Shown here: in pieces, positions 13,301 to 36,655 of the stretch
Layout: every line of letters starts with the position of its first letter
How positions within the stretch are numbered: the stretch's first letter is position 1
Origin: a virus
Lineage: Duplodnaviria > Heunggongvirae > Uroviricota > Caudoviricetes
IMG/VR virus record: IMGVR_UViG_3300010352_001127
Direction: 5' to 3' (one strand)
Length of the DNA: 64,000 bases
Made by a program: the position numbers and the translations under genes
The notes under the pieces: generated by a model
Database searches by the model: none
Seen by the model: the letters and a program-made list of their open reading frames with translations, nothing else
Told to the model about the DNA's origin: nothing

Positions 13301-16070
13301 TACCTTGAGCCCCGCTTGTTCCTGAAGTACCACCAGTACCACTCGTACCACTTGTACCACTTGTTCCCCCAGTACCACTAGTTCCACTACTACCTGATGT
13401 TCCACTAGTTCCACTACTTCCAGAAGTGCCTGAAGTTCCACCAGTTCCGCTTGTTCCAGATGAACCAGAAGTACCACTACTGCCCTGAGCTCCTGAAGTT
13501 CCAGATGTACCACCAGTCCCAGATGTTCCACTAGTTCCGCCAGTTCCGCTAGTTCCACTACTTCCTGAAGTACCTGATGTTCCACTACTACCAGATGTTC
13601 CCCCCGTACCTGAAGTTCCGCTAGATCCAGATGTTCCTCCTGACCCGCTTGTACCAGATGTTCCACTTGTACCGCCAGTTCCGCTAGTTCCACTACTACC
13701 TTGAGCTCCACTAGTTCCACTCGTGCCACTAGTTCCTGAAGTTCCACTACTACCTTGAGCTCCACTAGTTCCACTTGTTCCGCTAGATCCGCTAGTTCCA
13801 CTAGTACCGCTTGTGCCCGATGTACCTGAAGTTCCACTAGAACCACTTGTACCGCTGGTTCCACTGATACCAGTCAATCCACTAGTTCCACTTGTTCCTG
13901 AGGTGCCCCCAGTTCCGCTCGTACCGCTAGATCCAGAAGTACCACTACTACCAGAAGTACCTGAAGAACCTGATGTTCCGCTAGTTCCACTACTACCTGA
14001 TGTTCCACTTGTTCCAGACGTACCACTAGTCCCGCTAGTACCTGAAGTTCCACTAGTTCCACTGGATCCTGAAGTTCCCCCAGTGCCACTAGTTCCACTA
14101 CTACCTTGAGCTCCACTAGTTCCAGAAGTCCCACTACTACCTGATGTTCCACTTGTTCCAGAAGTACCACTACTACCCGATGTTCCAGATGTACCACCAG
14201 TCCCAGATGTTCCACTACTTCCACTAGTCCCTGAAGTTCCTGATGTTCCAGACGAACCACTCGTTCCTGATGTTCCTCCTGTACCTGATGTTCCTCCGGT
14301 TCCACTACTTCCTTGTGCTCCACTAGTTCCACTGGTTCCTGAAGTTCCGCTACTACCTGTTAAACCACTGGTTCCACTAGAACCACTAGTACCACTACTA
14401 CCACTAGTTCCTGATGTTCCGCTTGTACCACTGCTGCCAGATGTTCCACTAGTACCACTACTTCCTGAAGTTCCACTAGTACCACTAGTTCCTGATGTTC
14501 CGCTTGTACCACTGCTGCCAGATGTTCCACTAGTACCACTACTTCCTGAAGTTCCACTAGTTCCGCTACTACCACTAGTTCCAGATGTACCACTACTACC
14601 TTGTGCTCCACTAGTTCCACTACTACCAGTTTCTCCTGATGTTCCGCTGGTTCCGCTTGTACCTGAAGTTCCACTGGAACCAAAACCACTAGTACCAGAT
14701 GTTCCTAAACCAGCATCAGTATAAGTAAAAACAATAGGTTCGTCTAATATAAAATTGTTATTTGAATCTATCGGTGTAACATCTAATGTCCACCAAGATC
14801 CATTATCTGTTTTAGCATCTAAATAAAAAGTTGCAAATTTAGTAGAATCGTATTCATCGAATATTCTGATTCTAGACATTCCATTGGCATTAAGACTACT
14901 TAACCAAGAACTTATATCAACACCATCTTTACTTGTCTGACTTATGTATATTTGAGTTACTGAACCGTATACAGTATTATCAAATTTTAAATATCCAGAT
15001 AGAGGATTTGATGCTGTTGTTCCTGTTAAGAAATAATATGGTTGGCTATCACCTCCAAATATTCCAGATAAACCAGAAGATCCAGGAGAACCCATACCTG
15101 ATGTTCCACTAGTTCCACTTACACCACTACTTCCATAAAACCATCCATCAACACCAGATGATCCTGAAGTCCCACTACTTCCAGTTCCACCTTGAATATA
15201 AGATATTAAATACGATTTCCCGTTTGTAGCTGAACCTCCTCCTGATGCGTAAACTGAAAATCCAGTTATTTCATAAAAATTGCCACCTAATCCAAGATTA
15301 ACACTATTAATGGGAACATTATATATGCCTACAACTGAAAGATTTTCTCTCTCTTCTATTTTTAATACGCCTTGAATATTCCACGAACTTAACCAATTAT
15401 TTACAAGATCTCCATTCGCGTCCCATTTATTTATTCTTATATTTGTTACAGCCCCTAAATTTGAATTATTTATGTAGAATTTTCCATTCCCAGGAGTTGA
15501 TGTACTATTATCATAAACCCATTTACGCGTAGCTCCACCATAACCACCATCTATACCGCTACTTCCACTAGTTCCACTACTACCTCCGAGTCCTGATGTA
15601 CCACTTGATCCACTAGAGCCTGATGTACCTGAAGATCCTGCTTCGCCGCTACTTCCACTTGTTCCGGATGTACCACTTGTGCCACTTGTTCCTCTACCGC
15701 TTGTTCCGCTTGTGCCACCTGTTCCACTCGTACCTCCAGTTCCACTGGTTCCGCCAGTTCCGTCTCTGCCGCTGCTACCACTTGATCCATCTCTACCACT
15801 ACTACCACTTGTTCCATCAGCTCCGCTTGATCCAAAGAAAACACCATCAACACCCGATGTACCGTCTTTTCCAGATGTGCCACTAGTTCCACCTCCACCA
15901 CTTCCTGAAGATGTCGCACCAGTACATGGCAAATAATAAATATTTCCCCACTCGTCCTTTTGCCAAAGGCCGCAAAAACCATCTATAAAATCTTGACCTA
16001 AGTATATATGCCCCGGATCTGGATTACCAATTAGTTTCGGGTCTACTCTTTGGATTTTTTTGAAACTCAT
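7329..16070 (-). CDS. Giant collagen-like fibre protein (2913 aa): N-terminal ~470-aa duplicated beta-rich domain, ~2250 aa of (G-T/S-S/G)n collagen triplets, C-terminal ~190-aa globular domain
   Basis: Uninterrupted G-X-Y periodicity over about 6.7 kb with no Pro and with periodic charged triplets (GHD, GKQ, GND, GAQ, GRD). The conserved N-terminus is shared with the paralog at 1..1028. Codons GGN-ACT-AGT dominate. Confidence 0.8.
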   Translation of the reverse strand: MSFKKIQRVDPKLIGNPDPGHIYLGQDFIDGFCGLWQKDEWGNIYYLPCTGATSSGSGGGGTSGTSGKDGTSGVDGVFFGSSGADGTSGSSGRDGSSGSSGRDGTGGTSGTGGTSGTGGTSGTSGRGTSGTSGTSGTSGSSGEAGSSGTSGSSGSSGTSGLGGSSGTSGSSGIDGGYGGATRKWVYDNSTSTPGNGKFYINNSNLGAVTNIRINKWDANGDLVNNWLSSWNIQGVLKIEERENLSVVGIYNVPINSVNLGLGGNFYEITGFSVYASGGGSATNGKSYLISYIQGGTGSSGTSGSSGVDGWFYGSSGVSGTSGTSGMGSPGSSGLSGIFGGDSQPYYFLTGTTASNPLSGYLKFDNTVYGSVTQIYISQTSKDGVDISSWLSSLNANGMSRIRIFDEYDSTKFATFYLDAKTDNGSWWTLDVTPIDSNNNFILDEPIVFTYTDAGLGTSGTSGFGSSGTSGTSGTSGTSGETGSSGTSGAQGSSGTSGTSGSSGTSGTSGSSGTSGTSGSSGTSGTSGTSGTSGTSGSSGTSGTSGSSGTSGTSGTSGSSGTSGSSGTSGLTGSSGTSGTSGTSGAQGSSGTGGTSGTGGTSGTSGSSGTSGTSGTSGSSGTSGTGGTSGTSGSSGTSGTSGTSGSSGTSGTSGAQGSSGTSGTGGTSGSSGTSGTSGTSGTSGTSGTSGTSGSSGTSGTSGSSGTSGSSGTSGSSGTSGTGGTSGTSGTSGLTGISGTSGTSGSSGTSGTSGTSGTSGTSGSSGTSGTSGAQGSSGTSGTSGTSGTSGAQGSSGTSGTGGTSGTSGTSGSGGTSGSSGTSGTGGTSGSSGTSGTSGSSGTSGTGGTSGTSGTGGTSGTSGAQGSSGTSGSSGTSGTGGTSGTSGSSGTSGTSGSSGTSGTGGTSGTSGTSGTGGTSGTSGAQGSSGTSGTGGTSGTSGAQGSSGTSGTSGAQGSSGTSGTGGTSGTSGTGGTSGTSGTSGAQGSSGTSGTGGTSGTSGTSGTSGTSGTSGSSGTSGSSGTSGTSGTSGTSGSSGTSGTSGSSGTSGTGGTSGTNGTGGTSGTNGTSGSSGTSGSSGTSGTGGTSGTSGTGGTSGISGTSGTSGAKGSSGTSGTSGTSGTSGSSGTSGTGGTSGTGGTSGTSGVSGSSGTSGTNGTGGTSGTSGTSGTSGSSGTSGTGGTSGTGGTSGTSGTSGTSGHDGSSGTSGTGGTSGTSGTGGTSGTSGATGSSGTSGTGGTSGTGGTSGTSGTSGSSGTSGTSGKQGSSGTSGTGGTSGTSGTSGTSGTGGSSGTSGTGGTSGTSGAGGTSGTSGATGSSGTGGTSGTNGTSGTSGTSGHDGSSGTSGTSGTSGTGGTSGTSGTSGHDGSSGTSGTSGTGGTSGTGGTSGTSGSSGTSGTSGHDGSSGTSGTGGTSGTSGTGGTSGTSGYDGSSGTSGIGGTSGTGGTSGTSGTSGSSGTSGIGGTSGTGGTSGTSGTSGSSGTSGTSGKQGSSGTSGTGGTSGTSGSSGTSGTGGTSGTNGTSGTGGTSGTSGVDGSSGTSGTGGTSGTSGTGGTSGTSGTSGHDGSSGTSGTSGTSGTSGHDGSSGTSGTSGTSGTGGTGGTSGSSGTSGTSGTSGTGGTSGTNGTGGTSGTSGRDGSSGTSGTGGTSGTSGTSGHDGSSGTSGTSGTSGTSGTSGHDGSSGTSGAGGTSGTNGTGGTSGTSGTSGHDGSSGTSGTSGTSGTSGTNGTGGTSGTGGTSGSSGTSGTSGTSGKQGSSGTSGTSGTSGTSGSSGTSGTGGTSGTSGTAGTSGTSGTSGHDGSSGTSGTGGTSGTSGTSGTSGHDGSSGTSGTGGTSGTSGTAGTSGTSGHDGSSGTSGTSGTSGHDGSSGTSGTSGSSGTSGTSGSSGTSGTGGTGGTSGTGGTSGTSGHDGSSGTSGTGGTSGTSGTGGTSGTGGTSGTSGHDGSSGTSGTGGTSGTSGTGGTSGTSGHDGTSGTSGTSGTGGTSGTNGTGGTSGTGGTSGSSGTSGTNGTSGKQGSSGTSGTSGTSGTNGTSGTSGSSGTSGTSGHDGSSGTSGTGGTSGTSGHDGSSGTSGTGGTSGTSGTGGTSGTSGTSGTSGKQGSSGTSGTGGTSGTSGTSGTSGSSGTSGTGGTSGSSGTSGTSGTSGHDGSSGTSGTGGTSGTSGTGGTSGTSGTSGKQGSSGTSGTGGTSGTGGTSGLTGSSGTSGTGGTSGTNGTGGTSGTGGTSGTSGASGSSGTSGTSGKQGSSGTSGTGGTSGTSGTNGTSGSSGTSGTGGTSGTNGTGGTSGTSGNDGSSGTSGTGGTSGTNGTGGTSGTAGTSGHDGSSGTSGTGGTSGTSGHDGSSGTSGTSGTSGTSGHDGSSGTSGTSGTSGTSGTSGTSGTSGHDGSSGTSGTSGHDGTGGTSGTSGTGGTSGTSGHDGSSGTSGTGGTSGTSGHDGSSGTSGTGGTSGTNGTGGTSGTSGTSGKQGSSGTSGTGGTSGTNGTGGTSGTSGTSGHDGSSGTSGTSGNDGSSGTSGTSGNDGSSGTSGTSGTGGTSGTSGNDGSSGTSGTGGTSGTNGTGGTSGTSGTSGRQGSSGTSGTGGTSGTNGTGGTSGTSGNDGSSGTSGTSGHDGTGGTSGTGGTSGTSGTSGKQGSSGTSGTGGTSGTSGTAGITGSSGTSGTGGTSGTSGTGGTSGTSGTSGKQGSSGTSGTSGARGTSGTSGNDGTSGTSGVSGTSGTSGTSGITGSSGTSGIGVTYYYVNDIPPFSWATAWASQSKIDLSTTHGVTGGNGTSGFSVKVNCYYYMDHLMDTGTTSQMTAIDYSLAAMREYRFNVFVDQTGSYTNYVTDTKTVQHSGYWVKYNSETPSPGRHASIDTQGQIGPNDIDAEALIYSSKPYLLLKNNLRSATGWDPSPSYKLQLKYTVDVIEYSYVSANNTEI
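7900..14700. repeat. Collagen-triplet nonamer-based repeat region containing perfect in-frame tandem duplications (99 bp at 10171-10403, 72 bp at 11627-11793, 81 bp at 14401-14562)
   Basis: Direct comparison of the sequence lines shows exact 99-, 72- and 81-nt units repeated 2-2.3 times. All are multiples of 9 nt, so Gly phase is preserved. Confidence 0.7.
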
Positions 16071-16076
16071 TTAAAA

Positions 16077-16120
16077 AGAAAAACGGTTTTTTATACCTAT
16101 ATATAAAAAACCGTTTTTCT
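16077..16120 (-). terminator. Perfect 16-bp-arm hairpin (AGAAAAACGGTTTTTT / AAAAAACCGTTTTTCT) followed by a U-run on the minus-strand transcript. Likely a terminator of the pncA-nadR operon; its loop carries the TATATATA promoter-like box for the giant fibre gene
   Basis: Arms 16077-16092 and 16105-16120 are exact reverse complements. Loop ATACCTATATAT. On the minus strand the hairpin is followed by TTTTTAA then ATG. Confidence 0.55.
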
Positions 16121-16147
16121 TTTTGGTGTGGAGTTGTTATGAAGTTA

Positions 16148-16738
16148 TTATCTTTGCATATCAAAGAAAATTTTATATTTAAATATTTCATCGTCAGATA
16201 GAAAAATATCCAGATCCATTGAATTTATAATCATAACGCCGTCTTTAGCCATATCTTCGACGATGGGAGTCATTTGATCGAAAAAACGTGTTGCATCTAC
16301 AATCAAAAAAGTTTTGAAAAATACAGAGCAATCTTTGGCCGTTTCTTTTACATTGAAATCTCCTGGAAGTCCAACTACATAAACTTCTTTTACATCGTTT
16401 TTATCTAAAAAATCATAAAGATTTAAACCATCTTCATTAACTCCAACAAAACCGCTCAAATCTATGGTTTTCTCACCTTTTGTGAAAATAGTAGTTTCTT
16501 TTAAATCTAAATCTGGATGAAAATCTGCGCCTTCAGTATTTTGAATACAATGAGGAGGAATTTCATCAGTGAAAGATTTATGATTGACTGGATGCCAATC
16601 TCTTGATGCTACAGTTAAATCAAATTTATCTTTGATTTCGTTAATTATAGGAATAATTCTATCTCCGAAAGGAACAGGATATGTTCCACCGGGCATAAAA
16701 TCCTTTTGAACATCAACAATAAATAAAGCTCTTTTCAT
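16148..16738 (-). CDS. pncA: PncA-like isochorismatase-family protein (nicotinamidase/pyrazinamidase homolog); the expected nucleophile Cys appears to be replaced by Asn
   Basis: Motifs ALFIVDVQKDFMPGG, DWHPVNH, PPHC, GADFHPDLD, SGFVGVNEDG and VYVVGLPGDFNVKETAKD are co-linear with PncA (…VVGIATDHCVRQTAED…); D and K of the triad and the metal-binding His/Asp residues are conserved. Confidence 0.6.
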   Translation of the reverse strand: MKRALFIVDVQKDFMPGGTYPVPFGDRIIPIINEIKDKFDLTVASRDWHPVNHKSFTDEIPPHCIQNTEGADFHPDLDLKETTIFTKGEKTIDLSGFVGVNEDGLNLYDFLDKNDVKEVYVVGLPGDFNVKETAKDCSVFFKTFLIVDATRFFDQMTPIVEDMAKDGVMIINSMDLDIFLSDDEIFKYKIFFDMQR

Positions 16739-16739
16739 A

Positions 16740-17105
16740 TTATTCTAATCTAATAACACCACTATCAACTTCAAATGTTTTCTTTTCTACCAGAGTGTCT
16801 GGCAAAACAAAAGTTTTTCCATCCTGTAAAACCATAACAGTTCCTTTCTTTGGAAAATGAACAGGATTTTTGCATGTTTCGCTATGGAATAAAAAGGAAT
16901 TAAATGCTGGTTTTAATGAAAGACGTCCATTGGTTTTCAAATAACCCATGTATTCGTGCCCTTCAATTTCATAAACATATAAGGTGATCCCATTCACGAC
17001 AACATGTCTTTTAGCATTCATTTCTTTATCAATATCAACTTTCTGTTTACAACCAGTAAACAGAAAAAGACACATTATTACTAATAATCCTAAAAATTTT
17101 TTCAT
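16740..17105 (-). CDS. Lipoprotein (signal peptide + lipobox LFTGC)
   Basis: MKKFLGLLVIMCLFLFTGCKQK N-terminus. Confidence 0.5.
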   Translation of the reverse strand: MKKFLGLLVIMCLFLFTGCKQKVDIDKEMNAKRHVVVNGITLYVYEIEGHEYMGYLKTNGRLSLKPAFNSFLFHSETCKNPVHFPKKGTVMVLQDGKTFVLPDTLVEKKTFEVDSGVIRLE

Positions 17106-17125
17106 TTTACAAATATATTAATTTT

Positions 17126-18106
17126 TTAATAGTTAAAAAAATTCTTTTTAACTATATCTATAGCTTTTTGTGTTCTTTCTTCCCAATCAGTTCCACTCAC
17201 AACCTCCATTTTTAAATTTTTAGATTTAAAAAAGTTGTATTGGAAATCACCAAGATCATCTCTTTTTTCTTTTGAAAGGCGAGTTCCATCTTGTATATAA
17301 GGGGCATCTTTATCTAAGAAAATGTATAAATCGAATTTGTTTGCTTCTTCAATCCAATTATCGAATACGGGTTCAAGATCGAAGAAAAATTTAGAATAAG
17401 ATTTTGTTGTATTTAAATTTGTGTCGCTAAATAATATCCTATTAGCGTGTTTTATTTCTTCGATTATGCCACTAGCATGAGCTTTTCCAACATTCATGAT
17501 ATCTTTTATAGTTGTATTGTCTGAATGTTCGATTATATCTCTACCCCACTCTTTTACATAAGATGTTTGAAAAACTTTTGACAATTTTTCTGTAAGAACT
17601 GTTTTTCCAGTACTTTCTGTTCCACACAGACATATTTTCTTAACAAAATAAGGTCTTGCTACAAGTGATATATAATCCCAATACTTGAAAGGATTTTCTC
17701 TTATCTGAGTGCCACTTATTGGAACAGTTTCACGTTTTTCGTCAAATATTACATATCCACAATTCATATACTCAGCAACATACTCTGCGTAAGGTTCTGA
17801 AGCAAACACAACATCTACATTATCTAAAGTTTTACTTATGTGATCAGCCCATAGTTTAGATACTTCCCTATCAGAAACAGAAGTATATGGAAGTTTTACA
17901 TCGGTATATCTTATAATAACTTTATAATCATCCCTATATTTATCCGTAAGCCAGTGAAGTCTCACGTAACCTGGTATGGTTTCTTTTTCGTCATTCATAC
18001 ATAAAAGAACATATAAGAGATCACATTTCTCTTTAGCAAAATTTATAAGTGCTTCGTGACCTAAAGAAATTGGTTCTGCTTTTAAAATTATCAGTCCTCT
18101 TATCAT
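17126..18106 (-). CDS. nadR: NadR-type bifunctional NMN adenylyltransferase / ribosylnicotinamide kinase (no HTH domain)
   Basis: Nucleotidyltransferase (H/T)xGH-type motif (GLIILKAEPISLGHEALI) near the N-terminus. Later P-loop LCGTESTGKT (GxESxGKS/T of the NadR RNK domain). 326 aa. Confidence 0.7.
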   Translation of the reverse strand: MIRGLIILKAEPISLGHEALINFAKEKCDLLYVLLCMNDEKETIPGYVRLHWLTDKYRDDYKVIIRYTDVKLPYTSVSDREVSKLWADHISKTLDNVDVVFASEPYAEYVAEYMNCGYVIFDEKRETVPISGTQIRENPFKYWDYISLVARPYFVKKICLCGTESTGKTVLTEKLSKVFQTSYVKEWGRDIIEHSDNTTIKDIMNVGKAHASGIIEEIKHANRILFSDTNLNTTKSYSKFFFDLEPVFDNWIEEANKFDLYIFLDKDAPYIQDGTRLSKEKRDDLGDFQYNFFKSKNLKMEVVSGTDWEERTQKAIDIVKKNFFNY

Positions 18107-18942
18107 TCAAATATTTTTTTTATATTTTTGAAGTTGTTATTTATAATCAGATTATAATCATAATATTTCTTGGATTCATTCATTTTAATTTCATTAATAT
18201 TTCTTTTCTTATTCCACAAATAACTTGATTTTATTTCAAAGACTATGTTTGTATTTTTTATTCTATAGTCTATATAATAATTATGTTCTTTTCCGCTATC
18301 ATCAAAATAACTTATACGAGGTCCTCTTTCAATCAAATCAAATTTACCGATGGATTCAACAAATTTTAAAAATTTTAATTCATAACTGCTTTGATAATCT
18401 ATGCCATTATATTGTTTTATTCTTATTCTTCCCCATCCACTATTAGGTTTTCTTCTCCCTTCTTTAAAAGCTTTAATGGCTGCATCACTCATTCTTTTTT
18501 TAATATCATCAGATAGTTTAGTCCCCTTTCTTTTTTCTGCCATTTTTATCCATCCTTGTTTTTCTTTTATTTTTTGTTTAGAAGATTCCCAAGTAAAAGG
18601 GTTTCCGTTCTCATTCAACCATTTTTTAAGCCCTATTTTAGCATTATTGTTTGGTTTTCCAAAATTTCCGTTTCTATCTCCTTTATTTTGACATTTGGTA
18701 CAAAAATGTTCATTTTTATCTGGTTTTAGATCTCTTATTCTTCTTTCGAATATTACACCACAATCATCACATTTTACTTTTATAAATTTTATTCTATAAT
18801 CTCTTTTTGATTTTAGTAATGACCAATGAACTAAAAAAGGTTCGTTTATATTTGGTCTATAACCGAGTGTTTTTTTCCATCTGTCGGGTTGAGTGTAATG
18901 TGTTAAGACAACTTCAACGTTTTCATATTCTTTTATATACAT
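18103..18942 (-). CDS. Freestanding homing-endonuclease-like protein: N-terminal Zn-ribbon (KVKCDDCG…CTKCQ) + C-terminal PD-(D/E)XK-like domain
   Basis: The N-terminal CxxC…CxxC segment is paralogous to those of 42922..44574 and 46691..47581. C-terminal …IDYRIKNTNIVFEIKSSY… resembles a D…E.K nuclease core. ATGA overlap with nadR. Confidence 0.4.
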   Translation of the reverse strand: MYIKEYENVEVVLTHYTQPDRWKKTLGYRPNINEPFLVHWSLLKSKRDYRIKFIKVKCDDCGVIFERRIRDLKPDKNEHFCTKCQNKGDRNGNFGKPNNNAKIGLKKWLNENGNPFTWESSKQKIKEKQGWIKMAEKRKGTKLSDDIKKRMSDAAIKAFKEGRRKPNSGWGRIRIKQYNGIDYQSSYELKFLKFVESIGKFDLIERGPRISYFDDSGKEHNYYIDYRIKNTNIVFEIKSSYLWNKKRNINEIKMNESKKYYDYNLIINNNFKNIKKIFE

Positions 18943-18956
18943 AAGAACTTTTTATT

Positions 18957-18971
18957 CTTATATATTAAAAA
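18957..18971 (-). promoter_or_regulatory. Promoter-like box CTTATATATTAAAAA upstream of 18103..18942
   Basis: Motif family member, 15 nt upstream of the ATG. Confidence 0.45.
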
Positions 18972-19008
18972 CTAAAAATCACTTTTAACCTTTTCATTGT
19001 GGTCATTT

Positions 19009-19434
19009 TCATTCACTCCAATCTTCTTCACCATACGGATCCAAATCATTAATTATTCTTTTATTGAGTTTATATTCTCTTTTATGTTCTCTCTTTTTTT
19101 CTTTCCATTCACTATAACTTCCACAATGATGATGTCTTATCATATTACATATATCTGGGAAACTTCTAACTACTTTAGTTGGCAAACTATATATATTTAT
19201 ATCTGATGATGCACAATTATCTAATAGATGTAATATATAATCAATAACATAATCTTCATTTTGATCTTTATAATGTTTTAAAAATTTTATAATGTCATCG
19301 ACATTCTTCCAGCTTAACTCGATTTTTTTTAAATCTAATATAGCTTGTGCGGCTTCTTCGCGTGTTAAATCTGTTCGATAACCATATTTATCGAAATCTT
19401 TAAAATCTTCAAATTTAGATAAATTACTTATCAT
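19009..19434 (-). CDS. Hypothetical protein ending in the DPYGEEDW motif
   Basis: C-terminus …NDLDPYGEEDWSE* (motif at 19018-19041). Confidence 0.45.
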   Translation of the reverse strand: MISNLSKFEDFKDFDKYGYRTDLTREEAAQAILDLKKIELSWKNVDDIIKFLKHYKDQNEDYVIDYILHLLDNCASSDINIYSLPTKVVRSFPDICNMIRHHHCGSYSEWKEKKREHKREYKLNKRIINDLDPYGEEDWSE

Positions 19435-19437
19435 ATG

Positions 19438-19758
19438 TCATTTAACTTTTTTAGTTTCATAAATATAACACTCATACCATCTTGAAGATACTCCATATTC
19501 ACATAATACATTTTCAAGAGATTGTTTGGGGAATTTAGTAAAAGATCCTTTTATTTCCAAGAACCAAGAATCTGGCACATATTTTTCTTTTATCCATTCT
19601 CTTGGATCTTTTTCCCATCCATTTAATATATTATACCAACCTTCACTTTTATATTTATTTGTGAGTTCTCCAACGAGAATTTCTTCGCCATTATTATGTT
19701 TAAGAATTATAATATCTTCAATTTCAATTTCGTCAAAACTTACTTTTTTCAATTTCAT
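19438..19758 (-). CDS. Hypothetical protein
   Basis: ORF in an operon context, with 4-nt overlaps on both sides. Confidence 0.4.
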   Translation of the reverse strand: MKLKKVSFDEIEIEDIIILKHNNGEEILVGELTNKYKSEGWYNILNGWEKDPREWIKEKYVPDSWFLEIKGSFTKFPKQSLENVLCEYGVSSRWYECYIYETKKVK

Positions 19759-20324
19759 TGTTGTTTTTTATATATTTTTGTCCAATTAATTAACCCGTAG
19801 ACGGCTACAAAAGTTATCACAATATATTCTAAAGATACTAAATATATTCCTTTTGAATAGAATAACCACACGCTTAACATATCCAATAATATCCATAGAA
19901 ACCATCCATATAAATATTTTTTAGATAGAAATACCACAGCAAATATACTCATTGTTGTGACAATAGCATCTAGTAAAGCAAATTGTGGTTGAAAGAATCC
20001 CAATACATAACCTCCTAATAAACAAAGAATTAGTATAACAATTCCAGTTATTATTACATTTTTTAATGAAGATATTTTTATCTTTTTACCTATATCTCTT
20101 CCCCAATATGTCCAACCGTATATTGAAACAATCGTAAAAAAGACTTGAAGCGCAACTTGTCCAAACAATTGATTTTTTAAAAAAAGTATAAAGAAAAATA
20201 TCTGTCCGATTATACCAACAGGCCAATTCCAAATTTTGTTTCTAGCAGCCAAAACTACTGCAGCAAAAGAAAACAATGTTCCAAATAATTCTAAATAAGA
20301 AAGTGTATATCCTAGTAATACCAT
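19755..20324 (-). CDS. pnuC: PnuC-family nicotinamide riboside transporter
   Basis: 189-aa polytopic membrane protein with Trp-rich TM helices typical of PnuC. Genomic association with nadR and pncA. Confidence 0.6.
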   Translation of the reverse strand: MVLLGYTLSYLELFGTLFSFAAVVLAARNKIWNWPVGIIGQIFFFILFLKNQLFGQVALQVFFTIVSIYGWTYWGRDIGKKIKISSLKNVIITGIVILILCLLGGYVLGFFQPQFALLDAIVTTMSIFAVVFLSKKYLYGWFLWILLDMLSVWLFYSKGIYLVSLEYIVITFVAVYGLINWTKIYKKQQ

Positions 20325-20779
20325 TATTTATTTATCTTAATATACTTACCAATAATAGCTGATTTATCCAACACATGTCCATCAATTTCTTTCAAAAGTT
20401 CGGCTTTAGTATATCCTTCTTTGTTCAAAAAACAATCTAAAGCAAATATCTTAAAGAAATATCTATGAACACCATTTGGAGGGCATGGACCTTTATAATC
20501 AAATTGTTTATAGTCATTTTTTCCAAATAAAATTGGTGGTTGTGAATCTCCTTTTGTAAAGTGTTCATTAAACATAGTTGTAGTTGGTGGAATATTATAT
20601 ACAATCCAATGTACCCAATCTCCAACTGGAGCGTCGGGATCATCAACTAATAAAGCTAGACTAACAGTCGCTTTTGGAAAACCACTCCATTCTAGCTGAG
20701 GTGATACATTTACTCCCTCGCAAGTAAATTTGGAAGGAATAAATTCACCATGTCTAAACGCGTTACTTCTTATTTCCAT
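20324..20779 (-). CDS. PEBP-family protein (YbhB/YbcL-like)
   Basis: LVDDPDAP…W.HW and GPCPP.G.HRY motifs of bacterial phosphatidylethanolamine-binding proteins. Confidence 0.7.
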   Translation of the reverse strand: MEIRSNAFRHGEFIPSKFTCEGVNVSPQLEWSGFPKATVSLALLVDDPDAPVGDWVHWIVYNIPPTTTMFNEHFTKGDSQPPILFGKNDYKQFDYKGPCPPNGVHRYFFKIFALDCFLNKEGYTKAELLKEIDGHVLDKSAIIGKYIKINK

Positions 20780-22847
20780 CTTTTTCTTTTAACATTATTT
20801 TTAATTGAGCAAAACAATTAAATGGTACTCCTACAAAATAAAGTGGTTGATCTCCACTCCAATTTAATTGACCGCTCGCGAAATATTTTTGATTTGTTAT
20901 ATTATTAAAATAGATATTAAAATCTATCCAGTTCCAACTAACACCCAATTTTCCATTTAAAGTGTAATAAGAATCAATAGTTTCGGCTAAATCCGTCCCC
21001 AACCATTTTGTATATCCGATGATACTTCCATCTTGATATCTACAAGATAAACCTACTACAAACCATTTATATTTATAATGACCTTCTATGTTACCTATCC
21101 ATTTTGGAGATAATATTGGTTTATTTATTTGATTATTAGATTGTTTTATACCACAATCATTATACGAACCATTTACACCAATTCCTAAACCAAAATCCCA
21201 TTTGTATTTGAAATCTGCTTCAATTCCTCTTCTATAACTCTGTTTTACGTTATCGTGTAATGGAACTCCACTCATACCTATTTTACCATTTAAAACAATT
21301 TCATTACTAAAATTCATATGGAAAAAATTGAAATTTATATAAAAATTTTTTTCTACTACACGAATACCAAGTTCATTATCTCGCGATTGTTCGGAATTAA
21401 GATTGTTATAAACAGCGTTACCAAGAGTATCACATGGTAAGTAGTTATACCCATTTAATACATCATTTCTTGATGGTTCACGATTATTTACACCATAACT
21501 ATAATAAAACACAGTTCTATTTAAATTGTAATCTATTCCTAAATCATAATTTATAAAATTCCAATGTAAATCTGGCATAACAACATTATAATGAGGAGTA
21601 AAGTTCTCATCATAAGAAACATCGCCTTTATATTTAAAATCTGTATATCTATATTGAACATCGCCAAAAAGATTCAGATCTTTCCAAACATTATATTTAA
21701 CTTTCAAATAACTACTTATTTCATTTCTATATCCAGTGTTTGTGTATTGATATCCATAAATATCATTATTCCCTATATGTTCTCTATCATATGTAAAACC
21801 GTGAGTTCCTAAATCGAAATAAAATCCTTTTATATTTTTTGAAAAATTTAAATATCCACCATACCAATTAGATTTAAAAGTATATTTGTCTATACCATAA
21901 TTAATATTATTCTGTAAGAAATTCTGTAAATCAAAAGTATAATAGCCGTGAAGATAATTATAATAAAGAGCATAATTCAATTTCGTTTCTTTATTGAAAT
22001 TTATTATGTGGTGAAATTGAACGTGTGTCTGAGCAAAATTATCTTGTTCTTTGTCTGTCGCACCGTTTGTTTTCCTATCTTCTCGAACTTTTTCCAACGG
22101 AACGCCCAACCACGCTAACTGATTATTTTGGGCTCCTATAAAAGATACTATTTTGAATGTATGTTTTTTTACATTAAAATATGAATTTAAAAATAAACTC
22201 TGTCCTTTATTACTGGAATGATATTTATATCCTTTTGTTTCTATATCTGATAATTGAAAGTAATAACCGCCACGTTTAAAATTTTGATCGACCTCTGCTC
22301 CAATATTAAAACTATTGAAAGATCCGTATCCAAATTTAGCCGTCGCTTTATCATAAGTAGGGAAATGGGAATCAAAATTTAAACCACCTCCAAAACAAGA
22401 TGATCCATTTTTTGTTAAACTATTACCTCTTTGTATTTGAATCAAATCTAATGAATTAAAGAAATCTGGATAGTTTGAAAAATACAATCCTTGATCTTCG
22501 GGCTCATTCATTGGCACTCCGTTTAGAGTGAAATTAATACGAGTTTGATCAATTCCTCTCATACGAATATAAGAATATCCATAGGGGCTACCAGCATCAG
22601 AATAAGATGTGATAGAGGGTGTTGTAATAAGAATATCAGAAGGCTCTTGCCCGTGATATTTAAAATTTATTTCGTTCTTATTTAAATTTGTAAAAGTAAT
22701 AGGAGTAAGATGATTCGCCTTGTATGGCGCTGTAATATTAACCTCTTTTAATTCTATCGTGTCCTTACCAATATGATAAATAGTGTCTTGACTATAACCC
22801 CCGATAGCGAAGATAAATAGAATAATAATAAATAATGTTCTTTTCAT
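20763..22847 (-). CDS. TonB-dependent outer-membrane receptor (signal peptide, plug, ~22-strand barrel; 694 aa)
   Basis: N-terminal signal peptide plus TonB-box/plug region (LKEVNITA…, SYIRMRGIDQTRINFTLNGVPMNEPEDQGLYFSNYPDF). Long Tyr/Asn/Gly-rich beta-barrel body. Overlaps the PEBP gene by 17 nt (operon). Confidence 0.65.
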   Translation of the reverse strand: MKRTLFIIILFIFAIGGYSQDTIYHIGKDTIELKEVNITAPYKANHLTPITFTNLNKNEINFKYHGQEPSDILITTPSITSYSDAGSPYGYSYIRMRGIDQTRINFTLNGVPMNEPEDQGLYFSNYPDFFNSLDLIQIQRGNSLTKNGSSCFGGGLNFDSHFPTYDKATAKFGYGSFNSFNIGAEVDQNFKRGGYYFQLSDIETKGYKYHSSNKGQSLFLNSYFNVKKHTFKIVSFIGAQNNQLAWLGVPLEKVREDRKTNGATDKEQDNFAQTHVQFHHIINFNKETKLNYALYYNYLHGYYTFDLQNFLQNNINYGIDKYTFKSNWYGGYLNFSKNIKGFYFDLGTHGFTYDREHIGNNDIYGYQYTNTGYRNEISSYLKVKYNVWKDLNLFGDVQYRYTDFKYKGDVSYDENFTPHYNVVMPDLHWNFINYDLGIDYNLNRTVFYYSYGVNNREPSRNDVLNGYNYLPCDTLGNAVYNNLNSEQSRDNELGIRVVEKNFYINFNFFHMNFSNEIVLNGKIGMSGVPLHDNVKQSYRRGIEADFKYKWDFGLGIGVNGSYNDCGIKQSNNQINKPILSPKWIGNIEGHYKYKWFVVGLSCRYQDGSIIGYTKWLGTDLAETIDSYYTLNGKLGVSWNWIDFNIYFNNITNQKYFASGQLNWSGDQPLYFVGVPFNCFAQLKIMLKEKDGNKK

Positions 22848-23362
22848 TTGTGATATTTTTCGTTAAATTTAAAACTCCATTCTGGATTTGGCCTGTATTT
22901 AGTGTTTAGAAAATATTTATATACATATTTCCAATCCTTTTTTGGATTAAATCCAGCCTTGTCTTCCCAAAGAGAATTGAAATATGGTTTTTTGTCATAA
23001 AATCCAAAACTTCCTTTAGCGTCAGAAATTTCTGGATTATCATTCACGTACTTAAAATATATACCATCTTCTTCGAATTGTTTCATATACTTTTCAATCT
23101 CGTTTTTATAAGAAGATGTGAATATAAACAATATCATATCACGGCGGTTCTTTGTAAGATATTGTAAAGTTTCTTTGGCATAAGGATAGTAATTTATTCT
23201 AAATTCACCTTCACCTTTTTCAGATTTACGATAATCTGGCTCGGATATAACTCCATGAATATCAAAGCAATGATAGGTTTCATACCACTGCCTTTCTTTG
23301 GCGTGTTTAAACATTTTATCCATCCAAACAAGTAAAGATGGTTTATAGCAAGGATTTAGCAT
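22844..23362 (-). CDS. Hypothetical protein, possibly HAD-like 5'(3')-deoxyribonucleotidase-like with an altered motif I (FDIHGVI instead of DxDG)
   Basis: Weak resemblance only. First gene of the TonB-receptor operon; TATATA box at about 23374-23388. Confidence 0.3.
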   Translation of the reverse strand: MLNPCYKPSLLVWMDKMFKHAKERQWYETYHCFDIHGVISEPDYRKSEKGEGEFRINYYPYAKETLQYLTKNRRDMILFIFTSSYKNEIEKYMKQFEEDGIYFKYVNDNPEISDAKGSFGFYDKKPYFNSLWEDKAGFNPKKDWKYVYKYFLNTKYRPNPEWSFKFNEKYHK

Positions 23363-23499
23363 ATAAATATTTTTTTATATAACTTTTTTATTTTTAAGCC
23401 ATATAATTCGAACAAAATTAAATATTTTTTTATTAATAAAAAAATTTTGTAACCGATAAGAAAAATTAGCGTCTAATCTAGAAAATAAAAACATAAAAT

Positions 23500-23793
23500 A
23501 TGAACAGATTGTATAGAGCATCTAAAGATCGCATTTTCGGTGGAGTTTGCGGAGGAATTGGGAAGTATTTCGATATTGATCCAGTTATTATAAGACTTAT
23601 TTGGCTATTGTTTGCCCTTTGTGCTGGCTTTGCTATTTTCATTTATATTATAGCATGGATAATAATTCCAAATGAACCTTTGGAAATAAAACCAGAAAAA
23701 CCTATTAAAGAAAAGGAAGTTAAAGAAGACCCAATAGAAGAGCAGACCTTTGAAAAGCCAAGAGCTAGAAAAAAGGGAAATAATACAAAATAA
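23500..23793 (+). CDS. PspC-domain membrane protein
   Basis: LYRS.DRIFGGVCGGIGKYFDIDPVIIRLIWLL followed by a TM helix. Confidence 0.65.
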   Translation: MNRLYRASKDRIFGGVCGGIGKYFDIDPVIIRLIWLLFALCAGFAIFIYIIAWIIIPNEPLEIKPEKPIKEKEVKEDPIEEQTFEKPRARKKGNNTK

Positions 23794-23802
23794 TTCTTCT
23801 GT

Positions 23803-25257
23803 TTAAGCTGCAGGCGTAGCTGGTGCTGGAGGTTGATCTTCTTTAAATCCGTAAGTCACCTCAGTCTTCGTTTTACCAGGAGTTTTACCTGGCACTTTCT
23901 TAGAATCTATAGCATATAAAAGATCTATGTCATAGTAATCCTCACCAACTTTACCTATAGTTTTATTTAACTCAAATCTGTGTGTGACATCAGGAGGTGT
24001 TCGTTTATTCTTATCGTGATAAACATCAACAGCATATTTTTTCCAAATCCATGTATTTAAAGGTTTTGAGAAAACCGAATCTTCTTTAGCATACCATTTC
24101 TTTGTATATTCACACCAAACGATGTGTGGGGATCGTGGGAAAGCATATTCATTATTGTAAGAAAGTCTTATCACGTCTTCTGTGGCACAATAAGCATTAT
24201 CATACCTACACCAAGTAGCTCTACTTTCGGGAATATCTTCATCGTTATAACCATCGTGAACAATTGGATCATAATCATCGTCGTCTCTCCATTGTTCATA
24301 ATGCCCTTCGGTGTCAGTTAAAGTATAATATTCTCCCTCAAGATCATCGACACTCGATAGTTTCTTTTGTTCATGATAAAAATATCTTAAAGTATCCACA
24401 TAAGGAAATAAATCAAAGTTCGTATTTTCTAAAATAACTTCCATCTCAATATCCTGAGATCCTTTACCAGGAACAATTATATAAGTTCCACCATATTTTT
24501 GTTCGTCTTTACAATACCATCCTTCACGTTTAGCATAATTGGTGAATAATATTTCATCTTCGTCTTTATTAGTATAAACTCTATCCATAAAAATAGCTCC
24601 TTCCGGTTTTGATAATTTCCAAACTAACGCTCTTCCTCTAATCTTATTACCATCGCTATTTTTAAGTATGAACAATTTACATTGTTTTGGATTGTTTCTA
24701 TAGATGTTTAAAAATCTTCCACAATCCTCGTGTGACATACAAGAAGCTCCCATAGTACCGCGTAGACTATCATAATTTCTTGCATCATACCAATAAACAA
24801 TGTTGTCTCCATCAACCAATTCAAAATTACCAGATTCTTCAGTTTCTTTTACTATGGTTTTAAACTTCTTCACGAACTTTTGGACAGAATCCTCACTAAA
24901 TTTTGGAAGATTTTGAATGATGAATCTTCCAATTTTTTGAGTAGTTCTCATTTTAGAAGTCCAAAATTCTTCCTTGGGCTTACCTTCTTTTTTGAGTCTT
25001 TCTATTCTAGAAGATTGTAAAAAAGAAACACTCTCACCGTCATCTTCTACATCAACGTAAGAGAAATCAAAGAGACGATCGACTTCTTCGAGTTCTAAAA
25101 TACGTTTTGATATATTACTTTGTTTTATGTTCTGAATAGAAATTAAAACATCTTTAAATCTATCAGATAATATCATTTTTTGATCGGGCTGCTTTACTTT
25201 TTTCTCTCCTTTTTCGGCAGCTTCTTTCAAATAATCAAAATATTTATTAATACTCAT
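23803..25257 (-). CDS. Family-X paralog A (unknown function; conserved R…SC(M/A)…NPD…GRA..W…FMDRVY…YPYVDTL core) with C-terminal aromatic WCxYD repeats
   Basis: Core aligns with 27098.., 28342.., 29344.., 40330.. and 41404... C-terminal repeats TWCRYDNAYCATEDVIRL / VWCEYTKKWYAKEDSVFS / TWIWKKYAVDVY. Confidence 0.55.
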   Translation of the reverse strand: MSINKYFDYLKEAAEKGEKKVKQPDQKMILSDRFKDVLISIQNIKQSNISKRILELEEVDRLFDFSYVDVEDDGESVSFLQSSRIERLKKEGKPKEEFWTSKMRTTQKIGRFIIQNLPKFSEDSVQKFVKKFKTIVKETEESGNFELVDGDNIVYWYDARNYDSLRGTMGASCMSHEDCGRFLNIYRNNPKQCKLFILKNSDGNKIRGRALVWKLSKPEGAIFMDRVYTNKDEDEILFTNYAKREGWYCKDEQKYGGTYIIVPGKGSQDIEMEVILENTNFDLFPYVDTLRYFYHEQKKLSSVDDLEGEYYTLTDTEGHYEQWRDDDDYDPIVHDGYNDEDIPESRATWCRYDNAYCATEDVIRLSYNNEYAFPRSPHIVWCEYTKKWYAKEDSVFSKPLNTWIWKKYAVDVYHDKNKRTPPDVTHRFELNKTIGKVGEDYYDIDLLYAIDSKKVPGKTPGKTKTEVTYGFKEDQPPAPATPAA

Positions 25258-25276: not shown

Positions 25277-26773
25277 TTAGAATTTCATGTCACCGACATC
25301 AACTCTTATGTCTTTTTCTCCTTTATTCTTAAATGAAATTTTAATGATCAGTTTGTCTGGTCGAATTCCAATAATTTTTCCTTCACCAAAAATGGGGTGG
25401 AAAATTACTAATCCTTCTTTCAAATCTTTTTCTGTGAGTTTCCTACTACCACCGGATTCAGATTTTTTCTTAAAATCGTACTTTGAGAATTTATCTGGTG
25501 GAAGAATGAATTTGCTATTCATAGTGGTTGTTATAATCACTTTTGGATGAGGTCCTTCATTATCCACTTCTGTTATTGTTCCAAAAAGTTCACCTGTTTT
25601 ACTATAAATTTCCATATCCTTTTTGGCTTCATCGAAAGTAACAGGACTCATTCCCTTACTATCAACAACTTCTTCTCTCTTAACTTTCGTAGGATCAAAA
25701 TCTGGTGTTGTGTAGAATCCTACGTAATCAACCCAAATAGCGTCTTTCTTTAGACACCATTGTTTGTCGTGTTCGCACCATTGAGCATCGGCCACCTTAA
25801 CGGTATTTCCGAGATAGTCTTTGACCTCTGTTTGACCCGGTGCTAATTGTCCTGGTCCTGTTGTTGTAGATCTTGCGGATGTAGTTTGTCCGTAACCTCC
25901 GCCTTCCCACCAACGATCATCACGTTCCCAATCTGAATAATATTTACCACGACGTGAGTAAGAATATTGATGCTCAACTTTAGTTGGATCTCTTTTCACT
26001 GGAAGAGTTTCCCAATCTACTTTACAACAAGCTTCTGCTAACTTTTCCAAAAAAACTATATTTTGTTTTTCGCGAACTGAGTGTTGATCATCATAACCAA
26101 CACTAAGATTTGTACACTCGGGGAATTTTTCAGCAACTTGATGTGAATCTGTTACAGCTCCTGTTGGATCTTGTTTATATTTAAATCCACCAGCTTCATT
26201 TAACCTTTTAGCTAATTCATCTGCAAATTCAGCCGAACAACATCTTTCACCCATTTGGAAAGTAATAACACTATCATAATCTCTACGGTCTAATGAAATT
26301 ACTTTATTTATTTTTTTATATAATTCGTCATCTTTATTGCTACCCAAATATGTATTTAGAGCTCTAGATCCAACGCAACCATGTTCTTCACCATGAAAGA
26401 AATAATAAAGACCTTGAATACCTTTCCCTATCATATATATCATAATAGTAGCGCCAGCTTTATCGTCCGCACCAAGTAGGGTTTTTCCGTCTGTTTCGAT
26501 GTAATCTCCTTTGATGACATGCTTAACTTCTTTTGGTTGTCCGCTGTCTGCTGTATCCATATGGCAAGCAAACATAACGGTAGGATCTCCAATTTTGAAA
26601 TAATAATTTCCATTGGCATCCTTTTTCCACCCGCTAGGCAAATAAGGTTCTATCAACTTTTCGTTGCCTCCTGGCATTGTGGTACTTGTTAATTTTAAAA
26701 ATAGGTCTTTGATTGTGGACATTTTATTTATGCTTATTTTTTTATCTTCTTTATTTTCAACAAAATCTTTCAT
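25277..26773 (-). CDS. M20/M28-type co-catalytic zinc metallopeptidase-like protein with a C-terminal aromatic WCxHD module shared with family X
   Basis: HMDTA…DGKTLLGADDKAG…HGEEHG…DSH…DDQH pattern (the H, D, EE, D, H ligand set of M20/M28 peptidases). Paralog of 30891..32039. C-terminal AQWCEHDKQWCLKKDAIWVDY resembles the repeats in 23803... Confidence 0.5.
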   Translation of the reverse strand: MKDFVENKEDKKISINKMSTIKDLFLKLTSTTMPGGNEKLIEPYLPSGWKKDANGNYYFKIGDPTVMFACHMDTADSGQPKEVKHVIKGDYIETDGKTLLGADDKAGATIMIYMIGKGIQGLYYFFHGEEHGCVGSRALNTYLGSNKDDELYKKINKVISLDRRDYDSVITFQMGERCCSAEFADELAKRLNEAGGFKYKQDPTGAVTDSHQVAEKFPECTNLSVGYDDQHSVREKQNIVFLEKLAEACCKVDWETLPVKRDPTKVEHQYSYSRRGKYYSDWERDDRWWEGGGYGQTTSARSTTTGPGQLAPGQTEVKDYLGNTVKVADAQWCEHDKQWCLKKDAIWVDYVGFYTTPDFDPTKVKREEVVDSKGMSPVTFDEAKKDMEIYSKTGELFGTITEVDNEGPHPKVIITTTMNSKFILPPDKFSKYDFKKKSESGGSRKLTEKDLKEGLVIFHPIFGEGKIIGIRPDKLIIKISFKNKGEKDIRVDVGDMKF

Positions 26774-30762: not shown

Positions 30763-30890
30763 AAATGAAAATTAATTTTTAATATATAATGCAAATTGCG
30801 GATTATAAATTGTTTTACAAAATTAATAAATTTAATTTAGATATTAAAAAATTTTATTAATTTTGTAAAAATAAAAGAATAAAAATATTT

Positions 30891-32558: not shown

Positions 32559-33227
32559 TTAATTCATATTTAATTCTTTTAACAGATTGTCTATGTTATA
32601 CTGAGCTTCTTCTAAAAGTTTGACCTCCGGTATAATGATATTATTACCAACTTTTCTTACGCTATCAAATAAGATTTTTTCCTGATTGGTATAAATGGAA
32701 GCTGACGCTGTATATAAAACAGCTGATATTTCAGGATTAGATTTTTCTACTTGACTGGCTAAAAAATTTAACTTCTCAATCAACTTGTCCTTCTTCATAT
32801 TTATCTGCTTTTTAGTGTTGCAATTATAACAAAGAGTTTGATAATTATCAATATTATTTTCTCCGCCCTTACTTTTTGGTTTTACATGATCTTTTGTGAG
32901 CATTACTTCATCTCCGTTCTCATTGTATCCATATAAATTAAAGTGCCATTTGTAATTTTCTTTTACTTCGTTGGCGTGTCTTTCCAAAGCGAAGAATTTT
33001 CCTTCTAGACCACATTCAACGCAGGATACACCACTTTTTTTAAATGTTTGATATCTGTGAGATGCCAAACTAACTAAATTACCCAAATATTCTTTTACTG
33101 TTTTGGGCACTCTTTCTTTTCCTTTTTGATTTCCTTTTTTAATCACAATAGGATCTGGAACAAAATCCAAAACTTCATTTATGGAAAAAGTTCCAATTCT
33201 TATATACCGGTTGTTTTTATTTTTCAT
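32559..33227 (-). CDS. HNH endonuclease (freestanding, homing-type)
   Basis: LTKDHVKPKSKGGENNIDNYQTLCYNCNTKK HNH motif; CVECG Zn-finger upstream. Confidence 0.7.
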   Translation of the reverse strand: MKNKNNRYIRIGTFSINEVLDFVPDPIVIKKGNQKGKERVPKTVKEYLGNLVSLASHRYQTFKKSGVSCVECGLEGKFFALERHANEVKENYKWHFNLYGYNENGDEVMLTKDHVKPKSKGGENNIDNYQTLCYNCNTKKQINMKKDKLIEKLNFLASQVEKSNPEISAVLYTASASIYTNQEKILFDSVRKVGNNIIIPEVKLLEEAQYNIDNLLKELNMN

Positions 33228-36653: not shown

Positions 36654-36655
36654 TA

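Follow-up and report, generated by a model that had tools for sequence, protein, structure and literature searches.

One gene of the Caudoviricetes record IMGVR_UViG_3300010352_001127, of which we analysed a stretch of 64,000 nucleotides (the window), encodes a 694-residue protein that is probably a functional TonB-dependent outer-membrane transporter (TBDT) from an uncharacterised Bacteroidota family for the uptake of a precursor of nicotinamide adenine dinucleotide (NAD). It would supply the outer-membrane step of a phage salvage route. The evidence comes from the domain content and predicted fold of the protein, from its pattern of conservation, and from gene order in bacteria and phages. 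Gene context points to nicotinamide riboside as the most likely precursor, with nicotinamide mononucleotide (NMN) or NAD itself as possible substrates. The receptor and the three NAD-pathway genes of its neighbourhood are as follows:

20763..22847, minus strand: TonB-dependent outer-membrane transporter, 694 aa (plug and barrel domains, AlphaFold2 model, Foldseek, conservation, synteny).
19755..20324, minus strand: PnuC-family inner-membrane transporter (nicotinamide riboside carrier), 189 aa (PF04973, TIGR01528, phrog_1880, alignment with the PnuC structure 4QTN).
17126..18106, minus strand: NadR-type bifunctional enzyme (NMN adenylyltransferase, NMNAT, plus ribosylnicotinamide kinase, RNK), 326 aa, without a helix-turn-helix (HTH) domain (TIGR01526, AAA_28, PDB, phrog_3462).
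16148..16738, minus strand: PncA-like protein (isochorismatase-fold nicotinamidase), 196 aa (PF00857, 3e-11; NF008623, 1.2e-25, below cut-off).

A preliminary description of this DNA had taken the 694-residue protein for a complete receptor, and the domain and structure analyses bear this out. Its open reading frame (ORF) runs from a signal peptide (residues 1-19) through a TonB-box-like segment (29-40) and a plug (~45-160) to a barrel (~165-687), and ends in a polar tail. The N-terminus, MKRTLFIIILFIFAIGGYS followed by QD, is a classic signal peptide with Gln at position +1. The TonB-box-like segment behind it, DTIELKEVNITA, is disordered in the AlphaFold2 model, as expected, and its residues D29, L33 and E35 are at least 90% conserved among 58 homologs. 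Pfam places the Plug domain (PF07715) on residues 49-154 (E 4.9e-9, 37.1 bits against a cut-off of 23.9) and the TonB_dep_Rec_b-barrel domain (PF00593) on residues 258-650 (E 5.5e-20, 73 bits, above threshold). The model itself, built on an alignment of 58 sequences, has a predicted local distance difference test score (pLDDT) of 85 and a predicted template-modelling score (pTM) of 0.85. In Foldseek it superposed over ~680 columns on the 22-stranded transporters YncD (template-modelling score, TM, 0.80/0.85) and PqqU (0.78/0.82), and it is on this superposition that we describe the barrel as 22-stranded; DSSP by itself counted 26 β-segments past residue 160, or 24 once two pairs split by bulges were merged, and so did not give exactly 22. 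The reading frame is not interrupted: an identical protein was called on ten independent contigs, so an assembly frameshift is unlikely.

The pattern of conservation along the protein is that of a working transporter. Across 57 homologs, fractional identity to the window receptor was 0.65 in the plug, 0.43 in the barrel strands and 0.35 in the loops, making the plug the best conserved region and the loops the fastest evolving. The alignment of 58 sequences, the window receptor among them, has 67 invariant columns, and the window receptor carries every one.

What, then, does this family transport? A protein search returned 1951 homologs, of which the closest cellular ones are full-length, ~42% identical and all from Bacteroidota; the bacterial relatives in general show 37-45% identity over 94-99% of the length (E 1e-135 to 1e-166). 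We took the best 80 of 365 confirmed genome matches as bacterial loci and located pnuC and nadR in them by tblastn; 74 of the 80 had at least 1.8 kb of downstream sequence and were testable. The 80 loci are almost all labelled Bacteroidota, and the isolates among them include Chitinophaga, Zobellia, Niastella, Hymenobacter, Pontibacter and Dysgonomonas. In 70 of the 74 testable loci nadR lay within 2 kb downstream of the receptor gene on the same strand, and in 56 both pnuC and nadR lay downstream. The NAD regulator NrtR was encoded upstream of the receptor in 13 of the 58 loci with enough upstream sequence. Two arrangements illustrate the pattern: NrtR, NUDIX, NAMPT, TBDT, PnuC, NadR, Prs in Mucilaginibacter (for example M. 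phyllosphaerae), and NrtR, TBDT, PnuC, NadR in Flammeovirga (for example Flammeovirga sp. SJP92). The linkage of this receptor family to nicotinamide riboside salvage genes is near-obligate. A literature search found no published description of the receptor family, none of a Bacteroidota receptor-pnuC-nadR linkage, and no TonB-dependent receptor tied to nicotinamide riboside in Bacteroidota.

The same linkage is found in the phages to which the window is related. A megablast of the locus against 50,697 phage records gave no match, and relatives were found at the protein level only. At that level the window and the curated megaphage LR756501 (735 kb; L001 in our set) are collinear, with 55-74% amino acid identity: 56% for the receptor, 71% for the 172-residue protein encoded beside it, 74% for a neighbouring 484-residue protein, and 70% for a 1349-residue protein that lies 35 kb away, at a matching distance in LR756501. 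LR756501 and the remaining phages of more than 630 kb are members of the Mahaphage clade, with Bacteroidetes as their predicted hosts (PMC7162821). The predicted hosts of these relatives, the Gln at position +1 of the receptor and the uniformly Bacteroidota origin of its close cellular homologs together support the earlier suggestion of a Bacteroidota host. Other traits of large phages in the window are an intein-bearing UvsW-like helicase, homing endonucleases, families known only from PHROG, and M28 peptidases shared with megaphages.

Receptor homologs occur in 24 of the 50,697 phage records: four huge-phage records of 635-735 kb (LR756501, LR756503, LR756502 and LR745206), 15 Lak megaphages and five short faecal fragments. 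A TBDT is thus as unusual in a phage as the preliminary description had supposed, and the protein matched no PHROG family; within the Mahaphage and Lak megaphages, however, it is conserved and had already been noticed. Mar_Mega_1 and LR745206 were each credited with a 'TonB-dependent receptor (SusC)' by Michniewski et al. (2021, PMC9723777), who proposed a role in carbohydrate uptake; the LR745206 receptor of that list is probably the homolog examined here, 35% identical to that of the window. Surveys of jumbo phages mention pnuC and nadR, and no receptor (PMC11662467).

In three of the huge-phage genomes the order of genes is directly comparable with that in the window:

LR756501 (735 kb): NadE, TBDT, HAD-like gene, PnuC, NadR.
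LR756502 (642 kb): NUDIX, TBDT, PnuC, NadR.
LR745206 (635 kb): TBDT, PnuC, NadR, contiguous.

In Lak-A1, weak NadR and PnuC matches lie 5-6 kb downstream of the receptor. A scan of IMG/VR added 31 viral contigs with the receptor, up to 483 kb long, and in total NadR and/or PnuC were found within ~6 kb of the receptor at 31 of 34 phage loci, including 28 of the 31 IMG/VR contigs. Counted from the end of the receptor gene of the window, pnuC begins after 439 nt and nadR after 2.7 kb, both on the same strand. The phage receptors are intact, full-length ORFs with 31-66% identity. One viral contig, L117 (IMGVR_UViG_3300035698_010621), has at 2929-3438 only a 152-residue N-terminal fragment (56% identity), which may be a pseudogene remnant.

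In a neighbour-joining tree of 114 receptors, unrooted and without an outgroup, so that it does not fix the number or direction of transfers, two clades consist of phage sequences only: the window receptor is among the 15 members of the first (bootstrap 71), and the second has 17 (bootstrap 98). The window, LR756501 and the phage L088 formed a subclade with bootstrap 100, and the main bacterial clade comprised 63 sequences (bootstrap 93). To judge from this tree, the phage copies are old and diversified rather than recent acquisitions. They share with the Bacteroidota operon (TBDT, pnuC and nadR, often with nrtR, nadV (NAMPT), prs or NUDIX) the receptor family, the gene order and the HTH-less NadR, 327 residues long in the operon. 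The phage copies differ from it in lacking NrtR and in falling into separate clades, and the window phage in having HAD-like, PEBP, endonuclease-like, lipoprotein and PncA-like genes besides.

The two partner genes of the window look functional, apart from doubts about the NMNAT motif of NadR (see below). PnuC matches PF04973 over its full length (1e-44) and passes the equivalog cut-off of TIGR01528 (91.9 bits against 42.45). NadR matches TIGR01526 (6e-53), AAA_28 (2e-21), phrog_3462 and, in the PDB, the NadR structures 8x7f (1.6e-36), 9x6f and 1lw7, and it keeps the ISGTQIR motif and the Walker A motif GTESTGKT. PnuC and NadR, which the preliminary description had named together, are both encoded in the cluster, but not side by side: nadR lies 1.65 kb past pnuC, with three ORFs between them.

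PnuC together with an HTH-less NadR constitutes a phage pathway established by experiment, NARP3, and it is for this reason that we see in the locus a NARP3-like module to which a dedicated outer-membrane gate has been added. In NARP3, phage PnuC imports nicotinamide riboside and HTH-less NadR makes NAD+, by which the Sir2-HerA defence is overcome; it is a two-gene cassette, Bas30_87/Bas30_86 of Escherichia phage TrudiRoth, found in phages of Enterobacteriaceae (Yan et al., Sci Adv 2026, PMC13464706). The window phage likewise encodes a PnuC-family carrier and a truncated NadR (NMNAT plus RNK), with the same predicted path from nicotinamide riboside through NMN to NAD+. NARP3, in contrast, has no outer-membrane part, whereas here the conserved set has a dedicated TBDT as its third member and is carried by megaphages, with Bacteroidota as hosts. 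The two genes of NARP3 are adjacent, as they are in LR756502 and LR745206 but not in the window, where three ORFs separate them and the NMNAT motif reads SLGH. A counter-defence role, as in NARP3, is proposed for the window locus by analogy.

A phage-made receptor of this kind would be inserted in the host outer membrane during infection and, energised by the host TonB-ExbBD system, would bring an NAD precursor into the periplasm. PnuC would then carry nicotinamide riboside over the inner membrane, and the HTH-less NadR would trap it by phosphorylation to NMN, followed by adenylation to NAD+. The module may have originated as the three-gene Bacteroidota operon, sometimes headed by NrtR, and, once captured, would have been passed down in megaphage lineages. 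The phage would probably benefit from a high level of NAD+ in the infected cell, either for a long and demanding megaphage infection or to offset an NAD+-depleting defence. The import of an NAD precursor to feed PnuC and NadR had been suggested in the preliminary description, and the linkage in bacteria and megaphages lends it strong support. We give about even weight to the more general proposal that Bacteroidota megaphages carry a three-tier, envelope-spanning system for NAD-precursor import and activation, composed of TBDT, PnuC and NadR.

Two other uptake systems are comparable. For vitamin uptake Bacteroides uses the thiamine TBDT OMthi with PnuT, and BtuB systems for vitamin B12. The logic is the same, a TonB-dependent gate combined with a Pnu-type facilitator and a trapping cytoplasmic kinase; the vitamin and the receptor family are different, and the genes are chromosomal. 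In Haemophilus influenzae, the components of the nicotinamide riboside route include the porin OmpP2, NadN and the e(P4) phosphatase, and this route too needs an outer-membrane step. That step is passive diffusion through a porin with periplasmic processing, whereas in the window phage it is predicted to be active and TonB-dependent. The inner-membrane and cytoplasmic steps that follow are those of PnuC and NadR (PMC6593275).

Several observations weigh against the NAD-precursor reading. The substrate proposed for the receptor family is assigned from gene context, and nicotinamide riboside, at 255 Da, is small enough to pass through porins in other bacteria; the true substrate could be larger. 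TonB, ExbB and ExbD were not found among the ~50 ORFs scanned in the 64-kb window, so the phage must rely on those of the host. The receptor also lacks the aromatic residue of the usual C-terminal β-signal: its last strand ends in FAQLKIML and is followed by KEKDGNKK (20763-20786, minus strand), and such a non-aromatic, polar-tailed C-terminus might affect assembly by the β-barrel assembly machinery (BAM). Most bacterial homologs stop at a terminal aromatic residue (as in KYSF), but L, I or M is the last residue of many family members, and Leu with a polar tail of 7-8 residues ends the receptors of the window, LR756501 and L088 alike. The C-terminus is atypical rather than disqualifying, and since the tail is common to these three phages it appears old and tolerated.

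The remaining objections concern the partners. The NMNAT motif of the window NadR is SLGH rather than HxGH, and the preceding GKF has become LKA (ILKAEPISLGH, compared with LGKFDGMHLGH in the closest relative). HxGH was present in 74 of 74 bacterial and 26 of 30 phage NadR homologs, and the four other phage copies have QxGH; the change from His to Ser is unique to the window among the 104 homologs surveyed. Serine may stand in for the Thr of (H/T)xGH motifs, and the adenylyltransferase activity of the window NadR is uncertain. In the PncA-like protein the catalytic Cys has become Asn (GLPGDFNV, compared with GLAGDYCV in LR756501 and L088 and GIATDFCV in the nicotinamidase 2wt9) and 28 residues are deleted relative to LR756501; it is unlikely to be an active nicotinamidase. 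The window also lacks the NadE gene that its two closest relatives have, and three unrelated ORFs part pnuC from nadR. Compared with its two closest relatives, the NAD island of the window phage looks partly eroded.

Could the receptor transport something else, such as another vitamin, a metal chelate or a nucleoside, its place beside pnuC and nadR reflecting co-regulation or chance? We consider this unlikely, although of the alternatives it is the one that fares best. The closest solved structures belong to transporters of pyrroloquinoline quinone (PQQ), siderophores or copper, and a PDB sequence search with the family profile found only distant siderophore or PQQ receptors and no close solved relative. 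YncD and PqqU (PDB 6v81 and 9c4o) have the same fold and size as the window receptor (TM 0.78-0.85), but they share 14% sequence identity with it, take PQQ as their ligand and have no link to NAD genes. No NCBIfam model matched the receptor at E 0.01, leaving the family without a specific annotation there, and in some bacterial loci nadR but no pnuC follows the receptor. Against this stand the adjacency of nadR in 95% of loci across many Bacteroidota families, the many operons that are headed by NrtR or hold NAMPT, Prs or NUDIX, and the retention of the linkage in two deeply diverged phage clades.

The receptor might instead serve mainly to alter the cell surface, whether as a decoy, to shut out superinfecting phages for which the host copy is the receptor, or to anchor virions after their release. 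Phages often use TBDTs as receptors, FhuA for T5 being an example that was also among our structural matches, and the loops of the window protein evolve fastest. Huge phages are known to encode surface proteins that possibly affect susceptibility to other phages (Al-Shayeb et al., PMC7162821). A surface role would, however, leave unexplained why the gene is kept beside pnuC and nadR in phages and bacteria, and the best conserved parts of the protein, plug and TonB box, are those needed for transport and not for a decoy. This makes it improbable in our estimation, and superinfection exclusion, the second idea of the preliminary description, gained no support from our analyses.

We rate just as low the chance that the receptor gene, captured with a host operon, is now in decay and no longer contributes to the fitness of the window phage. 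The decay of its neighbours fits such a history (Cys to Asn in PncA, SLGH in NadR, loss of NadE, inserted ORFs), as do the 152-residue fragment in L117 and the atypical C-terminal tail. The receptor gene itself tells a different story: the ORF is intact and identical on ten contigs, every invariant residue is present, conservation falls from plug to strand to loop, and the tail is common to LR756501 and L088.

The published SusC label and the abundance of SusC/D systems in the host phylum would suit a carbohydrate importer that raises sugar uptake during infection, as proposed for Mar_Mega_1 and LR745206, but we reject this reading as having next to no chance of being right, because no NCBIfam model matched the protein, including the SusC/RagA signature (which we take to be TIGR04056), it has no N-terminal CarboxypepD_reg domain, it is 694 residues long where ~1000 is typical, no SusD-like gene adjoins the receptor in any locus examined (in LR756502 pnuC comes next, and in LR745206 pnuC and then nadR), and its best fold matches are small-ligand transporters.

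If the NAD-precursor reading is right, the 694-residue protein would be the first phage-encoded TBDT with an assigned physiological role, and the existing SusC and carbohydrate-uptake label of megaphage receptors would be corrected. The counter-defence principle of NARP3 would extend to the outer membrane: phage NAD+ replenishment, known so far as a cytoplasmic or inner-membrane process (NARP1-3), could include a phage-made outer-membrane protein, and megaphages would be seen to remodel the envelope of the infected host so as to take up nutrients. For bacteria, it would give a substrate class, pyridine nucleosides or nucleotides, to a TBDT family present in hundreds of Bacteroidota species, and TonB-dependent transport would gain a new substrate class in nicotinamide riboside or NMN. 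Among the bacteria with an ortholog of the receptor are culturable genera: Zobellia, Chitinophaga, Mucilaginibacter, Flammeovirga and Dysgonomonas.

The receptor gene is part of a co-directional, tightly packed minus-strand cluster that runs from 23362 down to 16148, further than the range given in the preliminary description. Since the co-directional genes continue to 16148 and a hairpin follows, we regard the cluster as a ten-gene, 7.2-kb NAD-related island. The ORFs of 172, 694, 151 and 189 aa at its head were found as first described, including the 17-nt overlap of receptor and PEBP genes; the 172-aa ORF overlaps the receptor gene by 4 nt, PEBP overlaps pnuC by 1 nt, and the next junction is again an overlap of 4 nt. 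Besides the four genes given above, the cluster and its ends comprise:

23413..23420, minus strand: TAATTTTG, a match to the Bacteroidota -7 consensus TAnnTTTG, 51 nt before the first ATG of the cluster.
22844..23362, minus strand: capless HAD-like protein, 172 aa, first gene of the cluster (phrog_1238, 3e-10; weak Pfam NIF match below cut-off).
20324..20779, minus strand: YbhB-type PEBP, 151 aa, without signal peptide (PF01161, 1e-40, positions 2-135 of 135; TIGR00481, 124 bits against a cut-off of 57.75).
19438-19758, minus strand: orphan ORF, 106 aa, of no recognisable family.
19009-19434, minus strand: orphan ORF, 141 aa, of no recognisable family.
18103..18942, minus strand: endonuclease-like ORF, 279 aa (phrog_15137 endonuclease, 7.5e-8; weak DUF7487 and DUF7836 matches).
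16740..17105, minus strand: predicted lipoprotein, 121 aa, with lipobox LFTGC (from its sequence; no family match).
16077..16120, minus strand: perfect hairpin with a 20-bp stem followed by a T run, 27 nt past the last stop codon; it scores on both strands.

The HAD-like family to which the 172-aa protein belongs has 228 homologs with 59-77% identity, all metagenomic or from megaphages, and an invariant DxHG motif I (D34, H36 and G37). Its AlphaFold2 model (pLDDT 84) gave weak fold matches in Foldseek, to KdsC-type HAD proteins (TM 0.3-0.5). We considered this protein as an NMN nucleotidase and rejected the idea: the capless-HAD matches are weak, there is no signal peptide, and the gene adjoins the receptor only in the window, LR756501 and L088.

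The PEBP is taken to be YbhB-like, and so cytoplasmic, because it has no signal peptide. Its nearest homologs, from a variety of bacteria, reach no more than 58% identity. The preliminary description had placed it with the receptor and pnuC in one operon. The link of the receptor with pnuC proved to be conserved, but PEBP is absent from the other 34 phage loci, the 80 bacterial loci and other megaphages, and the equivalent slot in LR756501 and L088 holds a second HAD-like gene (phrog_1238). We rejected PEBP as a partner in the conserved module; it is a lineage-specific insert, and we give it no role in the pathway.

The orphan ORFs of 106 and 141 aa had no Pfam or PHROG match and no tblastn match in the compared phage or bacterial loci. 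The 279-aa endonuclease-like ORF is probably a relative of homing endonucleases, to judge by its matches, and homologs of it lie just upstream of NadR in the clade-A phages L088, L090, L092, L097 and L100. A lipoprotein gene between those of NadR and PncA is found only in the window, LR756501 (12451-12801) and L088 (13354-13710); the window protein is 55-57% identical to the other two by tblastn, with LFTGC or LFGC as the lipobox, and might work together with the receptor at the surface or in the periplasm.

The single promoter-like box at about 23374-23388, behind which the operon had been thought to stand, was not confirmed: a sigma-70 scan of 16000-24000 was at chance level (54 sites, 51 expected) and gave nothing at that place. 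The TAATTTTG element at 23413-23420 lies within a 137-nt, AT-rich divergent intergenic region (23363-23499). The consensus TAnnTTTG occurs 117 times in the window where 94 are expected by chance, a weak enrichment that we regard as weak evidence and did not use. TAATTTTG itself recurs 51-56 nt before three minus-strand ORF starts (23413-23420, 51 nt before 23362; 37648-37655, 51 nt before 37597; and 30818-30825, 56 nt before 30762), and these positions hint at the use of host-type Bacteroidota promoters. At the other end of the cluster, the hairpin at 16077-16120 is likely its terminator.

Divergent from the cluster, a PspC-domain membrane protein is encoded at 23500-23793 on the plus strand. 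Just past the hairpin begins a 2913-aa ORF (7329-16070, minus strand) that consists mostly of collagen-like Gly-Ser/Thr-Ser triplets (GTSGSSGTSG and so on) with a few globular stretches between them; because of it, the window, otherwise of 0.30 GC, contains an island of 0.5 GC. Beyond that ORF, the adjacent genes at 2716-3900, 3946-4830 and 4842-5768, all on the minus strand, encode an RCC1-repeat protein, an NAD-dependent sugar epimerase/dehydratase and a radical-SAM protein, which are unusual auxiliary genes for a phage.

The 484-aa protein (23803-25257, minus strand) has 14 paralogous places in LR756501, 7-14 in other megaphages, and homologs also in 72-kb Cellulophaga phages, and seems to form a multi-copy family in phages. 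A pair of paralogous M28-type peptidases (phrog_4191) is encoded at 25277-26773 on the minus and 30891-32039 on the plus strand; peptidases are among the genes common to megaphages (PMC9723777). Genes resembling homing endonucleases (DUF7487 or HNH) lie at 18103-18942, the endonuclease-like gene of the cluster, and at 32559-33227, 42922-44574 and 46691-47581. The UvsW-like helicase (61828-62865, plus strand) matches intein/Hint domains in its C-terminal part; its ORF is probably interrupted by the intein and continues past 62865. At 35793-37597 on the minus strand, a gene for Prs (ribose-phosphate diphosphokinase, 404 bits) lies directly upstream of one for a PPK2-family polyphosphate kinase. 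Prs belongs to the NrtR operon of Mucilaginibacter, and the pair may be a second NAD- or nucleotide-related island of this phage.

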